From Escherichia coli (lineage in GTDB: Bacteria > Pseudomonadota > Gammaproteobacteria > Enterobacterales > Enterobacteriaceae), in NCBI RefSeq assembly GCF_013315695.1, contig NZ_CP054353.1: 64,000 bases of DNA; one strand, 5' to 3'. Under the pieces are notes generated by a model that ran no database searches, had not been told where the DNA came from, and worked only from the letters and a program-made list of their open reading frames with translations. Shown here piece by piece: positions 11,131 to 28,404 of this stretch (within the stretch, counting starts at the first letter, position 1; every line of letters starts with the position of its first letter). The position numbers and the translations under genes were made by a program.

Positions 11131-11258
11131 ATTAAGAAGTCGCAATGAGTATTACTTTGTAAATTGCAGGGTATTGTTTAGCTATCTGTATAACCTGAAC
11201 GTGAGTACTCATTCTTCTCAGTGGCTATTTACCAATATAATTCGGTAATGACTCCAAC

Positions 11259-11762
11259 TTATTGATAGTGTTTTATGTTCAGATAATGCCCGATGACTTT
11301 GTCATGCAGCTCCACCGATTTTGAGAACGACAGCGACTTCCGTCCCAGCCGTGCCAGGTGCTGCCTCAGATTCAGGTTATGCCGCTCAATTCGCTGCGTA
11401 TATCGCTTGCTGATTACGTGCAGCTTTCCCTTCAGGCGGGATTCATACAGCGGCCAGCCATCCGTCATCCATATCACCACGTCAAAGGGTGACAGCAGGC
11501 TCATAAGACGCCCCAGCGTCGCCATAGTGCGTTCACCGAATACGTGCGCAACAACCGTCTTCCGGAGCCTGTCATACGCGTAAAACAGCCAGCGCTGGCG
11601 CGATTTAGCCCCGACATAGCCCCACTGTTCGTCCATTTCCGCGCAGACGATGACGTCACTGCCCGGCTGTATGCGCGAGGTTACCGACTGCGGCCTGAGT
11701 TTTTTAAGTGACGTAAAATCGTGTTGAGGCCAACGCCCATAATGCGGGCTGTTGCCCGGCAT
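11259..11762 (-). CDS. insB: IS1 InsB (transposase made as an InsAB fusion by -1 frameshift)
   Basis: 167-aa ORF overlapping insA in the -1 frame. Confidence 0.9.
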
Positions 11763-11956
11763 CCAACGCCATTCATGGCCATATCAATGATTTTCTGGTG
11801 CGTACCGGGTTGAGAAGCGGTGTAAGTGAACTGCAGTTGCCATGTTTTACGGCAGTGAGAGCAGAGATAGCGCTGATGTCCGGCGGTGCTTTTGCCGTTA
11901 CGCACCACTCCGTCAGTAGCTGAACAGGAGGGACAGCTGATAGAAACAGAAGCCAC
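11681..11956 (-). CDS. insA: IS1 InsA
   Basis: 91-aa zinc-finger ORF at the IRL side of IS1. Confidence 0.9.
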
Positions 11957-12011
11957 TGGAGCACCTCAAAAACACCATCATACGCTAAATCAGTAAGTTG
12001 GCAGCATCACC

Positions 12012-12418: not shown

Positions 12419-12433
12419 GGTAATGACTCCAAC

Positions 12434-12937
12434 TTACTGATAGTGTTTTATGTTCAGATAATGCCCGATGACCTTGTCATGCAGCTCCACCGATTTTGAG
12501 AACGACAGTGACTTCCGTCCCAGCCTTGCCAGATGTTGTCTCAGATTCAGATTATGTCGCTCAATGCGCTGAGTGTAACGCTTGCTGATAACGTGCAGCT
12601 TTCCCTTCAGGCGTGATTCATACAGCGGCCAGCCATCCGTCATCCATACCACGACCTCAAAGGCCGACAGCAGGCTCAGAAGACGCTCCAGTGTGGCCAG
12701 AGTGCGTTCACCGAAGACGTGCGCCACAACCGTCCTCCGTATCCTGTCATACGCGTAAAACAGCCAGCGCTGACGTGATTTAGCACCGACGTAGCCCCAC
12801 TGTTCGTCCATTTCAGCGCAGACAATCACATCACTGCCCGGTTGTATGCGCGAGGTTACCGACTGCGGCCTGAGTTTTTTAAGTGACGTAAAACCGTGTT
12901 GAGGCCAACGCCCATAATGCGTGCACTGGCGCGACAT
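12434..12937 (-). CDS. insB: IS1 InsB (variant)
   Basis: 167-aa ORF. Confidence 0.9.
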
Positions 12938-13131
12938 CCGACGCCATTCATGGCCATATCAATGATTTTCTGGTGCTTACCGGGCTGAGAGGCGGTATAA
13001 GTGAACTGTAGTTGCCATGTTTTACGGCAATGAGAGCAGAGATAGCGCTGATGTCCGGCAGTGCTTTTGCCGTTACGCACCACGCCTTCAGTAGCGGAGC
13101 AGGAAGGACATCTGATGGAAATGGAAGCCAC
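12856..13131 (-). CDS. insA: IS1 InsA (variant)
   Basis: 91-aa ORF, about 90% identical to the standard copy. Confidence 0.9.
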
Positions 13132-13456
13132 GCAAGCACCTTAAAATCACCATCATACACTAAATCAGTAAGTTGGCAGCATTACCAAATTTTAATTACA
13201 CTTAAGGTGTATATTTTCTATGCAAGCCATCAATTAAAGAGGTGTAATGTGCTGATGACTATTTGTAATCGTTATACATTCTGACCTGGAGTCAGAAGGT
13301 ATTTCTCTGTCGGTGTGTTCACAGGCAGTGTGGTTGATTACATGAAATTCAGTACATTTGCAGTCTCGTTGCCCTTCTCGCCTGCCTTTCGTCATTACCG
13401 ACGGTATTGAATTTCGTTTTGCCCGTTGGGGTTCTCCGGACAAGGAGTTGTTTGTT

Positions 13457-14689
13457 ATGCCACGTTTTTTTGCCCGCCATGCCGCCACGCTGTTTTTCCC
13501 GATGGCGTTGATTTTGTATGATTTTGCCGCGTACCTGTCGACGGACCTGATTCAGCCGGGGATCATTAATGTGGTCCGTGATTTTAATGCCGATGTCAGT
13601 CTGGCCCCGGCAGCCGTCAGTCTCTATCTCGCGGGCGGTATGGCGTTACAGTGGCTGCTGGGGCCGCTTTCCGACAGGATTGGCCGCAGGCCGGTGCTGA
13701 TTACCGGGGCGCTAATATTTACCCTTGCCTGCGCTGCGACAATGTTCACAACGTCTATGACACAGTTTCTTATCGCGCGTGCAATTCAGGGCACCAGTAT
13801 CTGTTTTATTGCCACCGTTGGTTATGTCACGGTGCAGGAGGCGTTCGGCCAGACAAAAGGGATCAGGTTGATGGCGATTATCACCTCCATCGTACTGATT
13901 GCGCCGATTATCGGCCCGCTTTCCGGCGCAGCTCTGATGCACTTTGTACACTGGAAAGTCCTTTTTGCCATCATTGCGATTATGGGTTTTATCTCATTTG
14001 TTGGCTTACTGCTGGCGATGCCAGAGACGGTGAAGCGCGGCGCGGTTTCATTTAGCGCCAAAAGCGTCTTGCGCGATTTTCGTAATGTCTTTTGCAATCG
14101 GCTGTTCCTCTTTGGTGCAGCAACCATCTCTTTAAGCTATATCCCAATGATGAGCTGGGTGGCTGTCTCGCCGGTGATCCTGATTGACGCAGGCGGCTTA
14201 ACGACCTCGCAGTTCGCCTGGACACAGGTTCCGGTATTCGGCGCGGTGATTGTCGCGAATGCCATCGTGGCGCGTTTCGTTAAAGATCCGACCGAACCGC
14301 GCTTTATCTGGCGTGCCGTACCCATTCAACTGGTTGGCCTCGCGCTGTTGATTATCGGCAATCTGCTGTCACCGCACGTCTGGCTGTGGTCGGTGCTGGG
14401 CACCAGTCTGTATGCTTTCGGGATTGGTTTGATTATCCCGACCTTATTCCGCTTTACGCTGTTTTCCAATAAATTACCGAAAGGGACCGTCTCCGCATCG
14501 CTGAATATGGTGATCCTGATGGTGATGTCTGTCTCGGTCGAAATCGGCCGCTGGCTGTGGTTTAACGGCGGTCGCTTGCCGTTTCATCTGTTAGCCGTCG
14601 TGGCGGGCCTTATCGTCGTTTTCACCCTGGCGGGATTGCTTAATCGCGTGCGCCAACATCAGGCTGCCGAGCTGGCGGAGGAGCGGTGA
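13457..14689 (+). CDS. mdtM: Multidrug efflux MFS transporter MdtM
   Basis: 410 aa from [13 protein letters not shown]; recognised MdtM; the track ORF extends 33 codons upstream. Confidence 0.9.
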
Positions 14690-14729
14690 TTTTTGCGCGA
14701 TCCTGCCGTCAGGCTCTATTCTTAACATT

Positions 14730-16010
14730 ATGAATAAACTCATTGAACTCAGACGCGCCAAAATGTTGGCGCTCTCTTTACTGCTTATCGCCGCTGCTAC
14801 CTTTGTCGTTACGCTGTTTTTGCCACCCAATTTTTGGGTGAGCGGTGTGAAGGCGATTGCTGAAGCGGCGATGGTCGGCGCGCTGGCAGACTGGTTTGCG
14901 GTGGTGGCGCTGTTTCGCCGCGTGCCGATTCCGATCATTTCTCGTCATACGGCGATTATCCCGCGTAATAAAGACCGGATTGGCGAAAATCTCGGTCAGT
15001 TCGTGCAGGAAAAATTTCTCGATACCCAATCGCTGGTGGCATTGATTCGACGTCACGAACCGGTGTTGTTGATTGGCAACTGGTTTAGTCAGCCAGAAAA
15101 CGCCCGCCGCGTTGGTCAGCATCTGTTGCAGATCATGAGTGGTTTTCTTGAACTGACCGATGATGCGCGTATTCAGCGCCTGCTTAAGCGCGCAGTCCAT
15201 CGGGCGATTGATAAGATCGATCTTTCCGGCACCAGTGCGTTGATGCTGGAGAGTATGACCAAAAACGATCGTCATCAGGTGCTGCTGGATACGCTGATCG
15301 CGCAGTTGATTGCTCTTCTCCAGCGCGATAAATCGCGCAAGTTTATTGCCCAGCAAATTGTTCGCTGGCTGGAGAGCGAGCATCCGCTGAAAGCCAAAAT
15401 TTTGCCTACTGAATGGCTGGGCGAACATAGCGCGGAGTTGGTTTCTGACGCGGTGAATTCTTTGCTTGATGATATCAGCCGCGATCGTGTACATCAGATC
15501 CGCCATGCGTTTGATCGCGCCACTTTTGCCCTGATCGACAAGTTGAAAAACGATCCGGAAATGGCAGCGCGAGCCGATGCCGTAAAAAGTTATCTGAAAG
15601 AAGATGAAGCTTTTAACCGCTATCTCAGTGAATTGTGGGGGGATTTACGGGAATGGCTGAAAGCGGATATCGACAGTGAAGATTCTCGTGTGAAAGAACG
15701 TATCGCGCGGGCGGGTCAATGGTTTGGCGAAACGTTAATTGCCGATGATGCCTTGCGGGCGTCGTTAAATGGTCACCTGGAACAAGCCGCGCACCGCGTC
15801 GCGCCTGAGTTTTCCGCATTCCTGACGCGCCACATCAGCGATACGGTAAAAAGCTGGGATGCGCGGGATATGTCGCGGCAAATAGAGTTAAATATCGGCA
15901 AAGATCTGCAGTTTATCCGTGTCAACGGTACGCTGGTCGGCGGTTGTATTGGGCTAATTTTGTATTTGCTGTCGCAGCTCCCGGCCTTATTCCCCCTCAG
16001 CAATTTTTAG
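14730..16010 (+). CDS. yjiN: DUF445 inner-membrane protein YjiN
   Basis: 426-aa ORF; sequence and synteny. Confidence 0.85.
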
Positions 16011-16125
16011 AAATCCATGAAAAACTAAGTGGCTAACCGCGAGAGAGATCAAATAAACCACACTAAAAGAATGGTAATAATGTGGCCTCTTTTCATTATC
16101 TCCCGTGGTACGGGGAAGGAAAATC

Positions 16126-18054
<1,929 letters not shown>

Positions 18055-18225
18055 AAGAGTATCTGTTTTTATTTCACTCCACGGTCGGCGTCATACAAAC
18101 CCGCAAGGCGTTGCAGGCAGCGGGCATGACTTTTCGCGTCAGCGATATTCCCCGTGATTTACGCGGCGGCTGCGGGTTATGCATTTGGCTGACCTGTCCG
18201 CCTGGCGAGGAAATTCAATGGGTGA

Positions 18226-19233
<1,008 letters not shown>

Positions 19234-19300
19234 CAGGCTGGCATGTTTCACCTTTTTGTTATTAACTTGTTAACAACAAAAATGACAAACAAGGTTAAAC

Positions 19301-20479
19301 ATGCCTTCGCCCTCGCATCCCGTAGAACGCTTTTCTTTCAGCACCGCGCTTTTCGGGATGCTGGTTCTGACCTTAGGTATGGGTTTAGGCCGCTTCCTTT
19401 ATACGCCTATGTTGCCCGTCATGATGGCGGAAGGATCGTTTTCATTTAGCCAGCTCTCGTGGATTGCCAGCGGCAACTATGCGGGGTATCTGGCTGGCAG
19501 TCTGCTATTTTCGTTTGGCGCATTTCACCAGCCATCGCGCCTGCGCCCATTTCTGTTGGCTTCTGCCCTAGCGAGCGGGTTGTTGATCCTCGCAATGGCA
19601 TGGTTGCTGCCATTTATTCTGGTGTTATTGATTCGCGTCCTGGCGGGTGTCGCCAGCGCCGGTATGCTGATTTTTGGTTCGACGCTGATTATGCAGCACA
19701 CGCGCCATCCTTTTGTGCTGGCAGCTTTGTTTTCTGGCGTTGGCATTGGCATCGCACTGGGCAATGAATATGTTCTGGCAGGCCTGCATTTTGACCTCTC
19801 CTCGCAAACGTTATGGCAAGGCGCCGGGGCGCTTTCTGGCATGATGCTGATTGCACTTACGCTTTTAATGCCCTCGAAAAAACACGCCATCACACCAATG
19901 CCATTGGCAAAAACGGAGCAACAGATAATGAGCTGGTGGTTACTGGCTATTCTGTACGGCCTGGCGGGATTTGGTTATATCATCGTCGCGACTTACCTGC
20001 CGCTCATGGCGAAAGATGCAGGCTCACCATTGTTAACCGCCCATCTCTGGACGTTAGTCGGCTTATCAATTGTGCCTGGTTGCTTTGGCTGGCTATGGGC
20101 AGCAAAACGTTGGGGGGCTTTGCCCTGCCTGACGGCGAATTTGCTGGTGCAGGCTATCTGTGTGCTGCTTACTCTCGCCAGCGACTCGCCTCTCTTGCTT
20201 ATCATCAGCAGTCTTGGTTTTGGCGGTACCTTTATGGGCACGACATCTCTGGTGATGACTATCGCCCGCCAACTGAGCGTACCGGGAAATCTCAATCTTT
20301 TAGGCTTTGTGACGCTCATTTACGGCATTGGACAAATCCTCGGCCCGGCGCTGACCAGTATGCTCGGCAATGGAACATCGGCGCTTGCCGGCGCCACTCT
20401 CTGCGGCGCGGCGGCGTTGTTTATTGCTGCGCTTATCAGCACAGTACAATTATTTAAGCTGCAAGTGGTCACTTCATGA
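19301..20479 (+). CDS. yjiJ: MFS-type transporter YjiJ
   Basis: 392-aa polytopic ORF; synteny. Confidence 0.85.
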
Positions 20480-20491
20480 GGAGTGTTTCCC

Positions 20492-21046
20492 TTACCACTC
20501 AAGAAATTCGACCGCAACCGTTGATGTCAGCCAGACCCCGTTTTCCGCTTGCCAGAAAGGGAGGCCTCGTTTCGCCATTTCCTGTGCTTTGACGGTTAAA
20601 ATAACCGGCGATCCGTGTCTTGCTCCCACTTTGCGTGCCGTTGCTTCATCAGCAGAGAGATGTACGTAGTGACGCTCACCTGCAATCAGCCCCTGTTTTT
20701 TTATCTCGTCAAGGAAACGGCTTGCCGTACCGTGGTAGAGAAACTGTGGCGGTGTTTTTTCGGCAAAGGAAATAGCGACCTGCGAAGTCGAATGCCCCTG
20801 AACCGCGCGGATGCACCTACCATCACTGGAATAACTAAAACGCTTTTTATCGCTGGTGGCAACCACGGTATCCAGCAATGCACGGGTTAACCGCTTGCCC
20901 GCTTTTTGGGCACAAAGTATGAGCTTATCGATATCCGCCCATCCTTCACGGTCCAGTACGATACCAATCGCCTCCGGTTTGTGTCGGAGGACAAAACTTA
21001 AAAACTTGCTCGTATCCGCCAGCTCTTTTTCGTTGTACTTTGCCAT
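20492..21046 (-). CDS. kptA: RNA 2'-phosphotransferase KptA (Tpt1 family)
   Basis: 184-aa ORF recognised as KptA. Confidence 0.88.
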
Positions 21047-21295
21047 CGCGTTTTCGTCCCTGGATTATCTGTTTTTTATTTACTATGTCATTGTCACTGG
21101 GTTTATGAATTTTCTGCAACTCAATCCTGCGTAGAACCTTTTCCACACAGCGTAATTTTACCGCTATGCAAAAAACGCATAGTCAGAAACATACTTGCAT
21201 TTTCCCCATACCCACATGGCTGATAAGGTTTTTCAGCTCCAGGAATTTTCCTGGCTCAAGCAACACACAAACACAAAAAAACAATGGGGATTGTT

Positions 21296-21979
21296 ATGAC
21301 ACAACAAGGGGATGCTGTAGCCGGGGAGCTGGCGACAGAAAAAGTGGGCATTAAAGGGTATCTGGCTTTTTTTCTCACCATAATCTTTTTTTCCGGTGTT
21401 TTTTCCGGGACAGACAGTTGGTGGCGCGTTTTTGATTTTTCCGTTCTGAACGGATCGTTTGGGCAACTGCCTGGTGCGAACGGAGCCACCACCTCGTTTC
21501 GCGGCGCGGGTGGCGCGGGGGCTAAAGATGGCTTTCTCTTTGCGCTGGAGCTGGCACCGTCAGTCATTCTCTCTCTGGGGATTATTTCAATTACCGATGG
21601 TCTTGGCGGATTACGCGCCGCGCAGCAGTTAATGACGCCAGTGCTAAAACCGTTGTTGGGCATTCCAGGGATCTGCTCGCTGGCGCTGATCGCTAACCTG
21701 CAAAACACCGATGCCGCCGCAGGTATGACCAAAGAGCTGGCGCAGGAAGGTGAAATTACCGAACGCGATAAAGTGATTTTCGCCGCATATCAAACCAGCG
21801 GTAGCGCCATTATCACCAACTACTTCTCTTCCGGCGTCGCGGTGTTTGCCTTTCTGGGCACGTCCGTAATCGTACCTTTAGCAGTCATCCTGGTGTTTAA
21901 ATTTGTCGGAGCCAACATTTTGCGCGTCTGGCTTAACTTCGAAGAACGTCGCAACCCAACGCAAGGAGCGCAAGCATGA
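21296..21979 (+). CDS. yjiH: Inner-membrane protein YjiH
   Basis: 227 aa from MTQQGDAV; overlaps the yjiG start. Confidence 0.85.
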   Translation: MTQQGDAVAGELATEKVGIKGYLAFFLTIIFFSGVFSGTDSWWRVFDFSVLNGSFGQLPGANGATTSFRGAGGAGAKDGFLFALELAPSVILSLGIISITDGLGGLRAAQQLMTPVLKPLLGIPGICSLALIANLQNTDAAAGMTKELAQEGEITERDKVIFAAYQTSGSAIITNYFSSGVAVFAFLGTSVIVPLAVILVFKFVGANILRVWLNFEERRNPTQGAQA

Positions 21980-22437
21980 CAACTCAGGTCCGCAAAAACG
22001 TCATGGATATGTTTATCGATGGTGCGCGCCGTGGCTTTACTATCGCCACGACCAACCTGCTGCCAAACGTGGTGATGGCGTTTGTCATCATTCAGGCGCT
22101 GAAAATTACCGGCCTGCTCGACTGGGTGGGGCATATCTGTGAACCCGTAATGGCGCTGTGGGGATTACCCGGTGAAGCGGCAACCGTCCTTTTAGCCGCA
22201 TTAATGAGTATGGGTGGCGCAGTCGGTGTTGCCGCCAGTCTGGCAACCGCTGGCGCATTAACCGGTCACGATGTCACCGTTTTACTGCCCGCGATGTATT
22301 TAATGGGCAACCCGGTGCAAAATGTCGGTCGCTGCCTGGGGACAGCCGAAGTGAATGCCAAATATTACCCGCATATCATTACGGTCTGCGTGATTAACGC
22401 ATTGCTGTCGATCTGGGTTATGCAGCTTATTGTTTAA
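21976..22437 (+). CDS. yjiG: Inner-membrane protein YjiG
   Basis: 153-aa ORF; synteny. Confidence 0.85.
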   Translation: MTTQVRKNVMDMFIDGARRGFTIATTNLLPNVVMAFVIIQALKITGLLDWVGHICEPVMALWGLPGEAATVLLAALMSMGGAVGVAASLATAGALTGHDVTVLLPAMYLMGNPVQNVGRCLGTAEVNAKYYPHIITVCVINALLSIWVMQLIV

Positions 22438-22449
22438 CAAGGAGTTACC

Positions 22450-23622
22450 ATGATTGATTATACCGCAGCCGGTTTTACCCTGCTGCAGGGAGCGCATTTG
22501 TATGCGCCGGAAGATCGGGGAATTTGCGATGTCCTCGTCGCTAACGGCAAAATTATCGCCGTTGCCAGTAATATCCCTTCTGACATTGTACCGGACTGCA
22601 CGGTTGTCGATCTCAGCGGGCAGATCCTCTGCCCAGGTTTTATTGATCAACACGTCCATTTGATTGGCGGTGGCGGCGAAGCAGGTCCCACGACGCGCAC
22701 GCCGGAAGTGGCGTTAAGTCGTCTGACGGAAGCAGGCGTCACGTCAGTGGTTGGTCTGCTGGGCACCGACTCTATCTCTCGCCACCCGGAATCCCTGCTC
22801 GCCAAGACCCGTGCGCTCAATGAAGAAGGCATCAGCGCCTGGATGCTGACCGGCGCTTATCATGTCCCTTCCCGCACTATTACGGGTTCCGTGGAAAAAG
22901 ACGTGGCGATTATCGATCGCGTGATTGGCGTGAAATGCGCCATCTCTGATCACCGTTCTGCCGCACCGGACGTTTATCACCTGGCTAATATGGCGGCGGA
23001 ATCCCGCGTTGGCGGTTTGCTCGGCGGTAAACCTGGCGTCACCGTGTTCCACATGGGCGACAGCAAAAAGGCGTTACAGCCTGTCTATGACCTGCTGGAA
23101 AACTGCGATGTGCCGATTAGCAAGTTGCTGCCGACCCACGTTAACCGCAACGTTCCGTTGTTTGAGCAGGCGCTGGAGTTCGCGCGCAAAGGCGGCACCA
23201 TCGATATCACCAGCAGCATTGACGAACCAGTCGCCCCTGCCGAAGGTATTGCCCGCGCCGTTCAGGCGGGTATTCCGCTGGCACGCGTCACCCTCAGCTC
23301 CGACGGCAACGGTAGCCAGCCGTTCTTCGATGACGAAGGGAATTTAACCCATATCGGTGTTGCCGGTTTTGAAACGTTGCTGGAAACCGTGCAGGTGCTG
23401 GTCAAAGATTATGATTTCAGTATCAGCGATGCCCTGCGCCCGCTCACCAGTAGCGTAGCCGGTTTCCTTAACCTGAGCGGGAAAGGCGAAATTCTGCCAG
23501 GCAATGACGCAGACTTACTGGTCATGACGCCAGAATTACGTATTGAGCAGGTATACGCTCGCGGCAAGCTGATGGTCAAAGACGGCAAAGCCTGCGTGAA
23601 AGGAACGTTTGAAACGGCATAA
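22450..23622 (+). CDS. iadA: Isoaspartyl dipeptidase IadA
   Basis: 390-aa ORF with an amidohydrolase-type metal-binding motif (HVHLIGGGG); recognised IadA. Confidence 0.9.
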   Translation: MIDYTAAGFTLLQGAHLYAPEDRGICDVLVANGKIIAVASNIPSDIVPDCTVVDLSGQILCPGFIDQHVHLIGGGGEAGPTTRTPEVALSRLTEAGVTSVVGLLGTDSISRHPESLLAKTRALNEEGISAWMLTGAYHVPSRTITGSVEKDVAIIDRVIGVKCAISDHRSAAPDVYHLANMAAESRVGGLLGGKPGVTVFHMGDSKKALQPVYDLLENCDVPISKLLPTHVNRNVPLFEQALEFARKGGTIDITSSIDEPVAPAEGIARAVQAGIPLARVTLSSDGNGSQPFFDDEGNLTHIGVAGFETLLETVQVLVKDYDFSISDALRPLTSSVAGFLNLSGKGEILPGNDADLLVMTPELRIEQVYARGKLMVKDGKACVKGTFETA

Positions 23623-23686
23623 ACGGTTGTCAGCCGCCCGAATGGACGTAGAATGCCCGCAAGGGCGGCTGACAGAGTAAAACGTA

Positions 23687-24598
23687 ATGGATGACTGTGG
23701 TGCGGTTTTGCATAATATTGAAACTAAATGGCTTTATGATTTTCTGACCCTGGAAAAATGCCGCAATTTTTCCCAGGCAGCAGTCAGTCGCAACGTCTCG
23801 CAACCGGCATTCAGCCGCCGCATCCGTGCGCTGGAACAGGCGATTGGCGTTGAATTGTTTAACCGCCAGGTGACGCCGCTGCAACTCTCGGAACAAGGTA
23901 AAATATTCCATTCGCAGATCCGCCATCTGTTGCAACAGTTAGAGAGCAACCTTGCAGAACTCCGTGGTGGCAGCGATTACGCGCAACGCAAAATTAAAAT
24001 AGCCGCTGCACACTCTCTTTCCCTCGGGCTGTTACCGTCCATTATCAGCCAGATGCCGCCGCTCTTTACCTGGGCAATTGAAGCTATTGATGTCGATGAA
24101 GCGGTCGATAAACTGCGTGAAGGGCAAAGTGACTGTATTTTTTCCTTTCACGACGAAGATTTGCTGGAAGCGCCGTTTGACCACATTCGCTTATTTGAAT
24201 CTCAATTGTTCCCCGTTTGCGCCAGTGACGAACACGGAGAAGCACTTTTTAACCTCGCGCAGCCACACTTTCCGTTACTGAATTACAGCCGCAACTCCTA
24301 CATGGGGCGATTGATTAATCGCACCCTGACGCGCCACAGTGAGTTAAGTTTCAGCACCTTTTTTGTCTCTTCGATGAGCGAGCTTTTAAAGCAGGTTGCC
24401 CTCGACGGCTGTGGGATTGCCTGGCTACCGGAATACGCCATCCAACAAGAAATTCGCAGCGGGCAGCTCGTTGTACTGAATCGGGACGAACTGGTGATCC
24501 CGATTCAGGCCTATGCATACCGGATGAATACCCGCATGAATCCAGTTGCCGAACGCTTCTGGCGTGAACTGCGCGAGCTGGAGATTGTGCTTAGCTGA
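23687..24598 (+). CDS. hypT: LysR-family hypochlorite-responsive regulator HypT (YjiE)
   Basis: 303-aa LysR-type ORF with N-terminal HTH; synteny. Confidence 0.88.
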
Positions 24599-24983
24599 CA
24601 TTCTCCAGCGTCGCACTGCGCCAACCGCCATTATCCCAGACCAGATCAAACGTTAGCGATTCATCGTCGTGATACAGCATTATCTCAAGGCTGATCGCCA
24701 GAGTGTGGCAGTACGCTTCTTTCAAATTAACCTGCAACGCCGCAATCCGTGGCTCATGAAATAACAGTGCAGAACGCAGCTGACGGCAATACCAGCTCTG
24801 GAGATGTTTGTCGCTCGGGTTATGCACTTGCCACTCGGGCATGCCTGAAACAAGTAATGACGGTAATGCCGAATGAGGAGAATTAAAAAGAGTGAGGAGA
24901 TCGCTGCATACTGATTTACGCAGCGGTGACGTTTTATTGCCTGAAATTTCAGGTAAAACAGCCTGAAGTGATTGGCGCATCAT
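24591..24983 (-). CDS. iraD: Anti-adaptor protein IraD (RpoS stabiliser)
   Basis: 130 aa from MMRQSLQAV; recognised IraD. Confidence 0.88.
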
Positions 24984-25455
24984 TTTGCGCACTCCTGACG
25001 TTTAGCAACATATGCGGCTTGCCCTGAACACCGGGCACCACTGTATTGATGCTCATTTTCCATAGCCATTCCCTTTTGTTCATTACATCCATGTCAGTCT
25101 GAGACAGGCCTGAATCCTGTCAGCAAAGTATAAAACCTTACTTGCCTATGAATATCTACTGACTTTTCAGGAAAAAAGTCATGATTTGATAAAAATCATC
25201 AAACTCAAAAAAAAACCGCTAGTATATTCTGAATATTCCGAATAGTTACGTAGATGAAAATACTTGTCACCACCGCTACTTAATTCCGGTGGGAAATTAT
25301 TTATTTCCGCATAATCAGCCATGTATTATTTAAAACAATTAGTTTGTAAATAATATAAATTGATAACATATCAAATACATCAAAAATACCATTCACAGGC
25401 ATTATTAATATAGACATCAATATAGCAACATCAAATTCCAGGTAATGACTCCAAC

Positions 25456-25959
25456 TTATTGATAGTGTTTTATGTTCAGATAATGCCCGATGACTTTGTC
25501 ATGCAGCTCCACCGATTTTGAGAACGACAGCGACTTCCGTCCCAGCCGTGCCAGGTGCTGCCTCAGATTCAGGTTATGCCGCTCAATTCGCTGCGTATAT
25601 CGCTTGCTGATTACGTGCAGCTTTCCCTTCAGGCGGGATTCATACAGCGGCCAGCCATCCGTCATCCATATCACCACGTCAAAGGGTGACAGCAGGCTCA
25701 TAAGACGCCCCAGCGTCGCCATAGTGCGTTCACCGAATACGTGCGCAACAACCGTCTTCCGGAGCCTGTCATACGCGTAAAACAGCCAGCGCTGGCGCGA
25801 TTTAGCCCCGACATAGCCCCACTGTTCGTCCATTTCCGCGCAGACGATGACGTCACTGCCCGGCTGTATGCGCGAGGTTACCGACTGCGGCCTGAGTTTT
25901 TTAAGTGACGTAAAATCGTGTTGAGGCCAACGCCCATAATGCGGGCTGTTGCCCGGCAT
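25456..25959 (-). CDS. insB: IS1 InsB
   Basis: 167-aa ORF. Confidence 0.9.
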
Positions 25960-26153
25960 CCAACGCCATTCATGGCCATATCAATGATTTTCTGGTGCGT
26001 ACCGGGTTGAGAAGCGGTGTAAGTGAACTGCAGTTGCCATGTTTTACGGCAGTGAGAGCAGAGATAGCGCTGATGTCCGGCGGTGCTTTTGCCGTTACGC
26101 ACCACCCCGTCAGTAGCTGAACAGGAGGGACAGCTGATAGAAACAGAAGCCAC
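25878..26153 (-). CDS. insA: IS1 InsA
   Basis: 91-aa ORF. Confidence 0.9.
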
Positions 26154-26431
26154 TGGAGCACCTCAAAAACACCATCATACACTAAATCAGTAAGTTGGCA
26201 GCATCACCCAAATTCCAATTAGTAATAAGATATGCTTTTAAATTGCATGCAAATAATTTTAAATGAGCGTTTTTTGATACTTTAGAGTGTTTCCCACCAT
26301 TTAATATCACTGTGTAGAGTTGATATCACTACAACAGAAACATGCATGTCATTTGTTTACTTCTCTTTTTACTACAGAAAAATTTATCTATTTTTCTAAG
26401 CATCAGTGAAATACTCATAAAGGTAACTATT

Positions 26432-26854
26432 ATGTCTATGCCATTAAGCAATGCCCTTCAGAGTCAAATTATTACAGATAATCACTTCCTTCATCATCCA
26501 AAAGTCGACAGTGAGTTAACACGTAAACATGAACGTGGACGCATGGATACGGAAAATATCTATCTTCCGCCTCTTGCTCGTGGCAATAACCATAATTACG
26601 ATGGAAAAAGCGTTGTCGAAATTAGAAAACTTGATATTAGTAAAGAGTCCTGGCCATTTAATTATGTGACAGAAACATGCAGAGAATTCAATGGTATTAC
26701 AACAACAGGACGTATGCTCTATCGAAACTTGAAAATCACCTCAGCTTTAGACGAAATATATGGTGGTATATGTAAAAAGGCGCATGCTGCCACAGAGTTA
26801 GCAGAAGGATTACGGCTAAATTTATTTATGAAAAGCCCTTTCGATCCTGTTGAG
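26432..26854 (+). pseudogene. yjiC: yjiC 5' fragment (codons 1-141), truncated by IS1; separated from its 3' half by the inversion
   Basis: ORF starting MSMPLSNALQ with an upstream aaaggt RBS-like motif; reading frame runs directly into the IS1 inverted repeat at 26855; last three codons (cct gtt gag) are the 9-bp target sequence. Confidence 0.75.
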
Positions 26855-26909
26855 GGTAATGCTGCCAACTTACTGATTTAGTGTATGATGGTGATTTTAA
26901 GGTGCTTGC

Positions 26910-27185
26910 GTGGCTTCCATTTCCATCAGATGTCCTTCCTGCTCCGCTACTGAAGGCGTGGTGCGTAACGGCAAAAGCACTGCCGGACATCAGCGCTATC
27001 TCTGCTCTCATTGCCGTAAAACATGGCAACTACAGTTCACTTATACCGCCTCTCAGCCCGGTAAGCACCAGAAAATCATTGATATGGCCATGAATGGCGT
27101 CGGATGTCGCGCCAGTGCACGCATTATGGGCGTTGGCCTCAACACGGTTTTACGTCACTTAAAAAACTCAGGCCGCAGTCGGTAA
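26910..27185 (+). CDS. insA: IS1 InsA (variant)
   Basis: 91-aa ORF. Confidence 0.9.
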
Positions 27186-27607
27186 CCTCGCGCATACAAC
27201 CGGGCAGTGATGTGATTGTCTGCGCTGAAATGGACGAACAGTGGGGCTACGTCGGTGCTAAATCACGTCAGCGCTGGCTGTTTTACGCGTATGACAGGAT
27301 ACGGAGGACGGTTGTGGCGCACGTCTTCGGTGAACGCACTCTGGCCACACTGGAGCGTCTTCTGAGCCTGCTGTCGGCCTTTGAGGTCGTGGTATGGATG
27401 ACGGATGGCTGGCCGCTGTATGAATCACGCCTGAAGGGAAAGCTGCACGTTATCAGCAAGCGTTACACTCAGCGCATTGAGCGACATAATCTGAATCTGA
27501 GACAACATCTGGCAAGGCTGGGACGGAAGTCACTGTCGTTCTCAAAATCGGTGGAGCTGCATGACAAGGTCATCGGGCATTATCTGAACATAAAACACTA
27601 TCAGTAA
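27104..27607 (+). CDS. insB: IS1 InsB (variant)
   Basis: 167-aa ORF; TTAAAAAAC frameshift motif at 27149-27157. Confidence 0.9.
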
Positions 27608-27805
27608 GTTGGAGTCATTACCCGACAGCGAGGTGTTTAGTGTGCCATGTCAGGCGAGAAATTCTATTGGATGAATCAAGTCCAACTTACTCATTGTCAA
27701 TTTCATGGTTGATTATTCGAAACGTGATGCTATTTCCAACATCAACGCTATAATTGCAGAATAATTGTAGATACATTTTTGTATATACAATTAGGGATGG
27801 CAATT

Positions 27806-28082
27806 ATGCCAATGGAGTTTGAATGGGATGAAAACAAGGCCAAAAGTAATCGGGTGAAACATGGCATCCGCTTTGAAGATGCGGTGTTATTGTTTGATGA
27901 TCCACAACATTTGTCACAGCAAGAACGCATAGAAAACGGTGAGTATCGCTGGCAGACATTACGGCATCGTGGTTATTCTGGTTGCGCATACCATCCGTTT
28001 CGAAAGCGGAAATGAAATTATTCGAATCATCAGTGCACGAAAAGCAGATCGTAAAGAGAGGAATCGCTATGAGCATGGTTAA
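27806..28082 (+). pseudogene. BrnT-like (DUF497) ribonuclease toxin gene, apparently frameshifted
   Basis: N-terminal MPMEFEWDENKAKSNRVKHGIRFEDAVLLFDDPQ in one frame ends after QTL; the conserved C-terminal IRIISARKA motif continues in another frame from about 27963 to the stop at 28080-28082; agggatgg upstream of the ATG. Confidence 0.7.
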
Positions 28083-28371
28083 ACATAAACGAGGGACCTC
28101 CTCTACACTCGATGTGCAGCATGAGGCCGAACTGAAGGCGCTGGCGAATAAATCCGACGAAGATATTGATTACAGTGATATCCCACCTTCCAGCGATGAG
28201 CAATGGTCTAACGCCGAACGCGGTAAGTTTTATCGGCCATTGAAAACTCAGGCTTCGGTGCGTATTGATGCTGATGTGATGGAATGGTTGAAGCGACCAG
28301 GTAAAGGCTATCAAACTCGCCTGAACGCAATTTTACGTGAAGCGATGCTGCGCGATCAGAACAAAAAATAA
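28069..28371 (+). CDS. BrnA-like antitoxin (ribbon-helix-helix family)
   Basis: About 100 aa from MSMVKHKRG; C-terminal GKGYQTRLNAILREAM typical of BrnA; start overlaps the toxin stop by 14 bp. Confidence 0.7.
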   Translation: MSMVKHKRGTSSTLDVQHEAELKALANKSDEDIDYSDIPPSSDEQWSNAERGKFYRPLKTQASVRIDADVMEWLKRPGKGYQTRLNAILREAMLRDQNKK

Positions 28372-28374
28372 TTC

Positions 28375-28400
28375 AGGCCGCCACATGGCGGCCATCATCC
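28375..28400. terminator. Putative bidirectional terminator hairpin between brnA-like gene and yjiA
   Basis: Palindrome ggccgccacatggcggcc between convergent stops. Confidence 0.4.
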
Positions 28401-28404
28401 AAAA

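Follow-up and report, generated by a model that had tools for sequence, protein, structure and literature searches.

An IS1 insertion at the upstream edge of the distal iraD promoter of Escherichia coli, within an apparent IS1 target hot spot

In an Escherichia coli genome, a complete IS1 has inserted immediately upstream of P1, the distal promoter of iraD, and every mapped iraD control element is retained. The insertion is best described as a real, recent and probably largely hot-spot-driven polymorphism, an instance of an already known kind of event. The favoured reading, to which a probability of roughly 0.55 is assigned, is that the IS1 at the edge of P1 is near-neutral or mildly modulating, with any effect confined to P1 output. 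IraD, an anti-adaptor, stabilises RpoS when DNA has been damaged and when cells enter stationary phase, and P1 is induced by ppGpp and replication stress as well as in late log phase. The analysis covered a stretch of 64,000 nucleotides of contig NZ_CP054353.1 (hereafter the window), in which the spacer between iraD and yjiC occupies exactly positions 24984..26431 and the yjiC ATG lies at 26432. Feature coordinates are collected in Table 1.

The inserted element, its recent arrival and its neighbours

The original prediction had described a standard IS1 with a perfect 9-bp duplication, about 450 bp upstream of the iraD start codon in an AT-rich divergent region. This description was borne out in full: the element is 768 bp long and carries insA and insB', it is flanked by two copies of CAAATTCCA at -449 to -457 from the iraD ATG, local AT content is 72-80%, and the empty site is that of K-12 and of the sister genome L022 (GCA_000407985.1). 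The terminal inverted repeats (23 nt each) are imperfect, being 78% complementary. Pfam families PF03811, PF12759 and PF03400 all score above their cut-offs, and the A6C frameshift motif AAAAAAC is present at 25902..25896, with insA followed by insB' in the -1 frame. All tested traits of the IS1 family were thus found, namely a length of about 768 bp with 23-bp repeats, insA and insB' with the A6C site, and a 9-bp duplication. The copy in BE311, which RefSeq annotates as an IS1A-family transposase, is 100% identical to the IS1 at P1. The element is intact and is predicted to be transposition-competent. Since IRL lies on the yjiC side and IRR on the iraD side, insA and insB' are transcribed in the same direction as iraD. 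A consensus scan found a single strong promoter-like site within the element, CTGCCA-16-TATGAT in IRL, which faces into insA.

Apart from the duplication, the 64-kb window has a single further occurrence of CAAATTCCA, which is on the opposite strand, and at the empty site the sequence is single-copy both in K-12 and in L022. In silico removal of IS1 together with one copy of CAAATTCCA regenerates the exact K-12 sequence at the junction and yields 100% identity with L022 over 5,672 bp; the repeat is therefore a true target-site duplication. These properties bear on whether an IS1 copy was simply misplaced by the assembler. Such an error would be favoured by the IS1 load of the lineage, in which each genome has at least 40 IS1 matches, and by the four copies within the window itself. 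However, misassembly does not make target-site duplications, the sequence duplicated here is single-copy in both reference genomes, both junctions are clean, and the element differs at two positions from its nearest neighbour copy. An assembly artefact is thus extremely improbable.

Relatives of the lineage were recognised by a unique YjiC'-IS1 fusion protein. The site is empty in six sampled genomes of the lineage, L022 included, and in the complete genome AF3. The exact IS1 junction of the window had no match in complete E. coli genomes, and an exact 38-mer spanning the left junction had none in a collection of species-representative genomes. Because L022 is identical over the 5,672 bp apart from IS1 and one repeat copy, the insertion at P1 is recent and strain-specific.

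The region interrupted by IS1 had also been predicted to be a regulatory region common to iraD and yjiC. As a location this is exact, the insertion lying in the spacer between the two genes, but the yjiC aspect is moot: the gene is already a pseudogene in the lineage, so its regulation is irrelevant here. A second IS1 breaks yjiC after codon 141, and the product is a 149-aa fusion ORF. This fusion ORF occurs in many public assemblies, which shows the pseudogene to be old in the lineage; the yjiC'::IS1-brnTA arrangement is likewise widespread in public assemblies and is therefore older than the insertion at P1.

The second IS1 (26855..27622) is identical to an inverted copy at 12419..13186. Together, these two copies bound a 13.7-kb segment (13187..26854) that extends from downstream of mdtM to yjiC', includes iraD with the IS1 at P1, and is inverted relative to K-12. 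One-step intramolecular transposition was ruled out as the origin of the inversion, as the sequences that flank the two IS1 copies on the outside are not inverted duplicates. The inversion more probably arose by recombination between IS1 copies already present, or through a more complex history. The yjiC target duplication (CCTGTTGAG / CTCAACAGG) is found at the left flank of both bounding copies.

Several further IS1-associated features were observed in the neighbourhood. Between the second IS1 and yjiA lies a brnT/brnA toxin-antitoxin pair (27623..28404), at the place where K-12 has the rpnD...mcrBC-hsdRMS-mrr restriction cluster; the annotation of the sister genome AF3 gives brnT as frameshifted. 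In LHM10-1 and CP52E, the same IS1-brnT junction sequence is fused to iraD position -150, which indicates a probable further IS1-mediated rearrangement. A copy at 11244..12011, in the last codons of yjiC and flanked by the duplication ATATAATTC, is the nearest in the window to the IS1 at P1, with two mismatches. In 215 complete E. coli genomes, an IS1 is located between uxuR and yjiC.

Position of the insertion relative to the iraD promoters

According to the Lovett laboratory, iraD transcription starts at -417 (from P1) and at -137 (from P2), the spacer of 672 bp has a putative DnaA box at -81, and P1 accounts for the late-log rise of iraD expression (bioRxiv 10.1101/2021.05.20.444958). Park et al. 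used P1 transcriptional fusions spanning -547..-413 and P1-P2 fusions starting from -498, with start sites 280 nt apart (PMC5574718); these end-points are consistent with the published start sites. The P1 and P2 positions used here are those of later publications from the same laboratories or related ones. A start at -417 corresponds to window position 25400. In a consensus scan, TTGATG-16-TATATT was the best core promoter at P1 in the window and K-12 alike, and it ends 7 nt before the mapped start.

The IRR of IS1 begins at P1 -41, 6 bp upstream of the -35 hexamer. As the duplication (P1 -40..-32) carries the first 3 nt of that hexamer and regenerates them, the -35 element is preserved on the iraD side. 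The insertion does not disrupt P1, in that the -35 hexamer, the -10 hexamer and the start site remain contiguous, with the junction at -41. The native DNA upstream of P1 -40, which is AT-rich and runs to yjiC, has been displaced by 777 bp and the right end of IS1 stands in its place. Downstream, the CsrA sites and the CsrA-controlled coupling of idlP and iraD are unchanged. The annotated start codon of ytiC (-419..-417; window 25400..25402; K-12 locus L001 5575) overlaps the mapped P1 start (-417), and the 38-aa versions of ytiC in RefSeq begin still further upstream of that start; ytiC would thus have a leaderless mRNA, unless the start site or the start codon has been wrongly assigned.

Table 1. 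Features of the iraD-yjiC region in the window, and natural IS1 junctions around P1 mapped against K-12. Orientation of the junctions is relative to the IS1 of the window; P1 positions are relative to its published start.
Feature	Window position	Position from iraD ATG	Strand or orientation	Remarks
iraD (130 aa)	24591..24983		-	intact; Pfam GPW_gp25; A of ATG at 24983
idlP (ORF27) leader peptide	24980..25063		-	intact; translationally coupled to iraD
Putative DnaA box TTTTCCATA	25056..25064	-81	+	intact
iraD P2 published start site	25120	-137	-	untouched
ytiD (ORF47)	25179..25322		-	intact
ytiC (33-aa K-12 version)	25301..25402		-	intact; first ORF of the P1 transcript
iraD P1 core promoter	25400..25434		-	intact; -35 TTGATG 25434..25429; -10 TATATT 25412..25407; start 25400
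Target-site duplication CAAATTCCA, iraD-side copy	25432..25440		.	P1 -32..-40
IS1, complete (IS1A type, 768 bp)	25441..26208		-	sequence comparison, repeats, Pfam
IS1 IRR (right terminal inverted repeat), iraD side	25441..25463		.	now fills P1 -41..-63 (position arithmetic)
insB' frame (167-aa ORF)	25456..25959		-	Pfam DDE_Tnp_IS1, E=2e-78
insA (91 aa)	25878..26153		-	Pfam Zn_ribbon_InsA + HTH_Tnp_IS1
IS1 IRL (left terminal inverted repeat), yjiC side	26186..26208		.	inverted-repeat search
Target-site duplication CAAATTCCA, yjiC-side copy	26209..26217		.	perfect 9-bp repeat
yjiC' pseudogene	26432..26881		+	native codons to 26854, then frame enters second IS1; DUF2686 profile positions 1-150 of 285
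Second IS1, cuts yjiC	26855..27622		+	91% identical to IS1 at P1
IS1 junction, 730V1		-396	same	adjacent deletion
IS1 junction, FDAARGOS_1288 and seven others		-410..-418	same	P1 start site
IS1 junction, Esc20 and CNR20180903		-421..-429	same	P1 -10
IS1 junction, AR_0369		-432	same	yjiC deleted
IS1 junction, window		-449..-457	same	
IS1 junction, F5656C1		-450..-458	same	
IS1 junction, 2014EL-1346-6		-450..-457	same	different IS1 isoform, 8-bp duplication
IS1 junction, BKQ37E		-428..-436	opposite	
IS1 junction, p10A and p10B		-435..-443	opposite	
IS1 junction, 20KM2222		-460..-468	opposite	
IS1 junction, JX21CE8		-461..-469	opposite	
IS1 junction, cM2a		-466..-474	opposite	

The original prediction had set an effect on iraD against the possibility that the insertion lies upstream of all mapped promoter and regulatory elements. 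This is where it lies, upstream of both core promoters, the -81 DnaA box, the CsrA sites and idlP; it is also nearer to the iraD control sequences than that prediction had known. The suggestion that upstream control sequences had been truncated or replaced holds to the extent that the DNA upstream of P1 -40 is now IS1, but no mapped element is truncated. A supply of outward promoter activity by IS1 had likewise been proposed and found no support. A consensus promoter scan across the IS1-iraD junction reported nothing, and a lenient script run across the IRR junction returned a best hexamer pair matching at 8/12 positions, with a -35 of only 3/6. With no pair above 8/12 and a poor -35, a hybrid or outward promoter at the IRR junction was ruled out. 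Since the native P1 -35 is retained, such a promoter is neither needed nor evident.

Clustering of IS1 insertions around P1

That IS1 has repeatedly hit iraD P1 in natural isolates was unexpected and adds interest to the allele in the window. A set of 5,426 complete E. coli genomes was searched with the allele and with short probes consisting of IS1 ends only, in both orientations. A full-spacer query in the opposite orientation was swamped by the 215 genomes with an IS1 between uxuR and yjiC, and the short IS1-end query was used instead. Junctions were mapped against K-12 and positions counted from the iraD ATG. With the window included, about 12 distinct IS1 junctions fall within 79 bp (-396 to -474), in both orientations and from several IS1 isoforms, this being a raw count without phylogenetic correction (loci L002, L007, L008, L010, L011 and L013-L019, given as equivalents of window 25396..25474). 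F5656C1 and 2014EL-1346-6 may represent one event. The 79-bp stretch around P1 thus appears, from the mapped junctions, to be an IS1 insertion hot spot with about 12 seemingly independent events. In the surrounding 1.9 kb or so, about 12 more IS1 insertions were found, at -548, -262, -150, -71, -4, +32, +118 and -695, with a few in yjiC. Those inside iraD or at its start codon (+118, +32 and -4; loci L004, L005 and L020) are natural iraD-null alleles in some isolates.

The frequency and the carriers of such insertions were also assessed. An intact P1 region is missing in 26 of the 4,897 genomes matched by an IS-free 201-bp probe, and nearly all mapped cases of a disrupted P1 region are due to IS1. 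The IS1 load of genomes with a hot-spot insertion is 10-40 places and mostly exceeds the median of 11. About half of the recurrent insertions destroy the core promoter (-410 at the start site, -421 at the -10 hexamer, -428 and -435), and five besides that of the window, between -450 and -466, spare it. The full-text literature on IS1 with iraD and on the iraD-yjiC intergenic region, as far as it was covered, which was incompletely, contained no report of IS insertions at this locus.

What attracts IS1 to this stretch can be addressed in part. The iraD-yjiC spacer is listed as an H-NS-bound 'promoter island' (PMC3661553). Its AT content is 72-90%, and the AT-rich maximum extends over -340..-520. 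The most AT-rich tract (-341..-400) has received few IS1 insertions; as insertions do not peak there, AT content alone is an incomplete explanation of the clustering. A site for IHF was rejected as the cause of the hot spot: allowing at most one mismatch, WATCAANNNNTTR matches only at -208..-196, with none near P1.

The favoured explanation is a recent move of IS1 into a stretch, bordering P1 on its upstream side, that is naturally prone to IS1 insertion. In this IS1-rich lineage, target preference was probably the main driver, and selection on iraD was not. Target preference is suggested by the neighbouring insertions, which occur in both orientations and at core-sparing as well as core-destroying sites; this mixture argues against one directional selective effect. 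The recurrence could also be due to selection. The clustering at P1 would then reflect more than target preference and be a selected recurrent route for tuning the IraD input to RpoS stability, an IS-based counterpart of rpoS polymorphism, in which promoter-sparing alleles would rewire the P1 response and promoter-destroying alleles would remove it. We consider this selected route quite unlikely.

Expected effects on P1 output and comparison with known systems

P2-driven basal and damage-induced expression of IraD is expected to be unaffected. Any phenotype would be a quantitative change in P1 output, felt through RpoS stabilisation as cells pass into stationary phase or following replication stress; neither the sign nor the size of this change is readable from the sequence. 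Two readings assign it a direction.

In the first, activation of the bgl/flhDC type, IS1 would break an H-NS filament or bridge, or insAB would be read through, so that P1 is derepressed, IraD rises and RpoS is stabilised. Here the core of P1 is kept with its junction at -41, the spacer is among the listed H-NS-bound regions, insAB is co-oriented with iraD, and a scan of the iraD strand found no terminator-like site between the insB' stop codon and P1. Battesti et al. are said to have reported in 2012 that iraD expression is inhibited by H-NS, which would also count for activation. The five other core-sparing natural insertions fit as well, but an equal number of natural insertions destroy P1, so recurrence does not point to activation. 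Moreover, the IRL promoter of IS1 is weak and subject to repression by InsA, of which an IS1-rich genome has plenty, and the element exerts polarity in either orientation; these properties count against activation, as does the lack of any outward promoter found at the junction. An activating effect is thus regarded as unlikely.

The second reading, attenuation, is doubtful as well. It supposes that native upstream DNA needed by P1 has been lost (alpha-CTD contacts, an unmapped activator or a cooperative, DnaA/SspA-dependent architecture), or that the IRR is occupied by InsA or IHF, with less P1 firing as the outcome. The late-log and replication-stress rise of IraD and RpoS would then be blunted, a mild counterpart of the rpoS-attenuating polymorphisms that are frequent in E. 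coli. The IRR does occupy the zone in which alpha-CTD and class I activators act (P1 -41..-63), and the AT content of P1 -41..-60 falls from 16/20 to 12/20, but the native sequence at -41..-60 is not a recognisable UP element. Similarly, binding of DnaA to the 672-bp iraD region is cooperative (bioRxiv 10.1101/2021.05.20.444958), yet no regulator site has been mapped upstream of P1, and functional P1 fusions need at most 81 bp of upstream DNA (PMC5574718). Several sister insertions abolish P1, which would fit with lower P1 activity being tolerated or selected for.

On AZT induction, ytiC rises 260-fold, more than any other E. coli gene, and the divergent yjiC 11-fold; no transcript reported in E. 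coli is more strongly induced by replication stress than that from P1 (PMC11228462). P1 is thus one of the most strongly regulated E. coli promoters, and, because the factors behind its induction are only partly known, the insertion may have taken away an unmapped upstream site lying between P1 -41 and yjiC. With IS1 6 bp from the -35 hexamer, the window holds a natural allele that parts the core promoter from all upstream DNA, and this allele could reveal whether DNA upstream of -40 matters for P1 control. The dozen IS1 hits in 79 bp also form a small natural allelic series, core-sparing on the one hand and destroying the -10 hexamer or start site on the other, that is usable to gauge the contribution of P1 to RpoS levels in wild isolates. 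Should IS1 have no effect here, the insertion is just another IS polymorphism in an IS1-rich lineage.

Compared with the IS1A and IS1B isoforms of K-12 and its relatives, the element is alike in length, repeats, genes, A6C site, 9-bp duplication and AT-rich target. No structural difference was found, and its location alone is particular. The insertion also resembles the hybrid promoters created by IS1 elsewhere in that an IS1 end stands directly upstream of a -10-like hexamer in the flank; it differs from them in that the IS1 end gives only a 3/6 -35 and the native P1 -35 is retained.

A closer parallel is offered by the IS1 and IS5 insertions at flhDC and bgl, which share an AT-rich, H-NS-bound region upstream of an intact core promoter, clustered sites and both orientations. 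The first hallmark of such H-NS relief is present at iraD, where IS1 has struck regulatory DNA that is AT-rich and H-NS-bound and lies upstream of a core promoter left intact. At flhDC and bgl, phenotypic activation by IS insertion and its selection have been demonstrated, whereas at iraD activation is a candidate effect and about half of the recurrent P1 insertions destroy the promoter. Unlike those loci, iraD also keeps a second, untouched promoter, P2. Finally, there is a parallel with the polymorphism of rpoS and RpoS levels in E. coli, in that the insertion lies at the gene for IraD, an anti-adaptor dedicated to RpoS stability; any action of the insertion would be on one of the two iraD promoters and not on rpoS itself.
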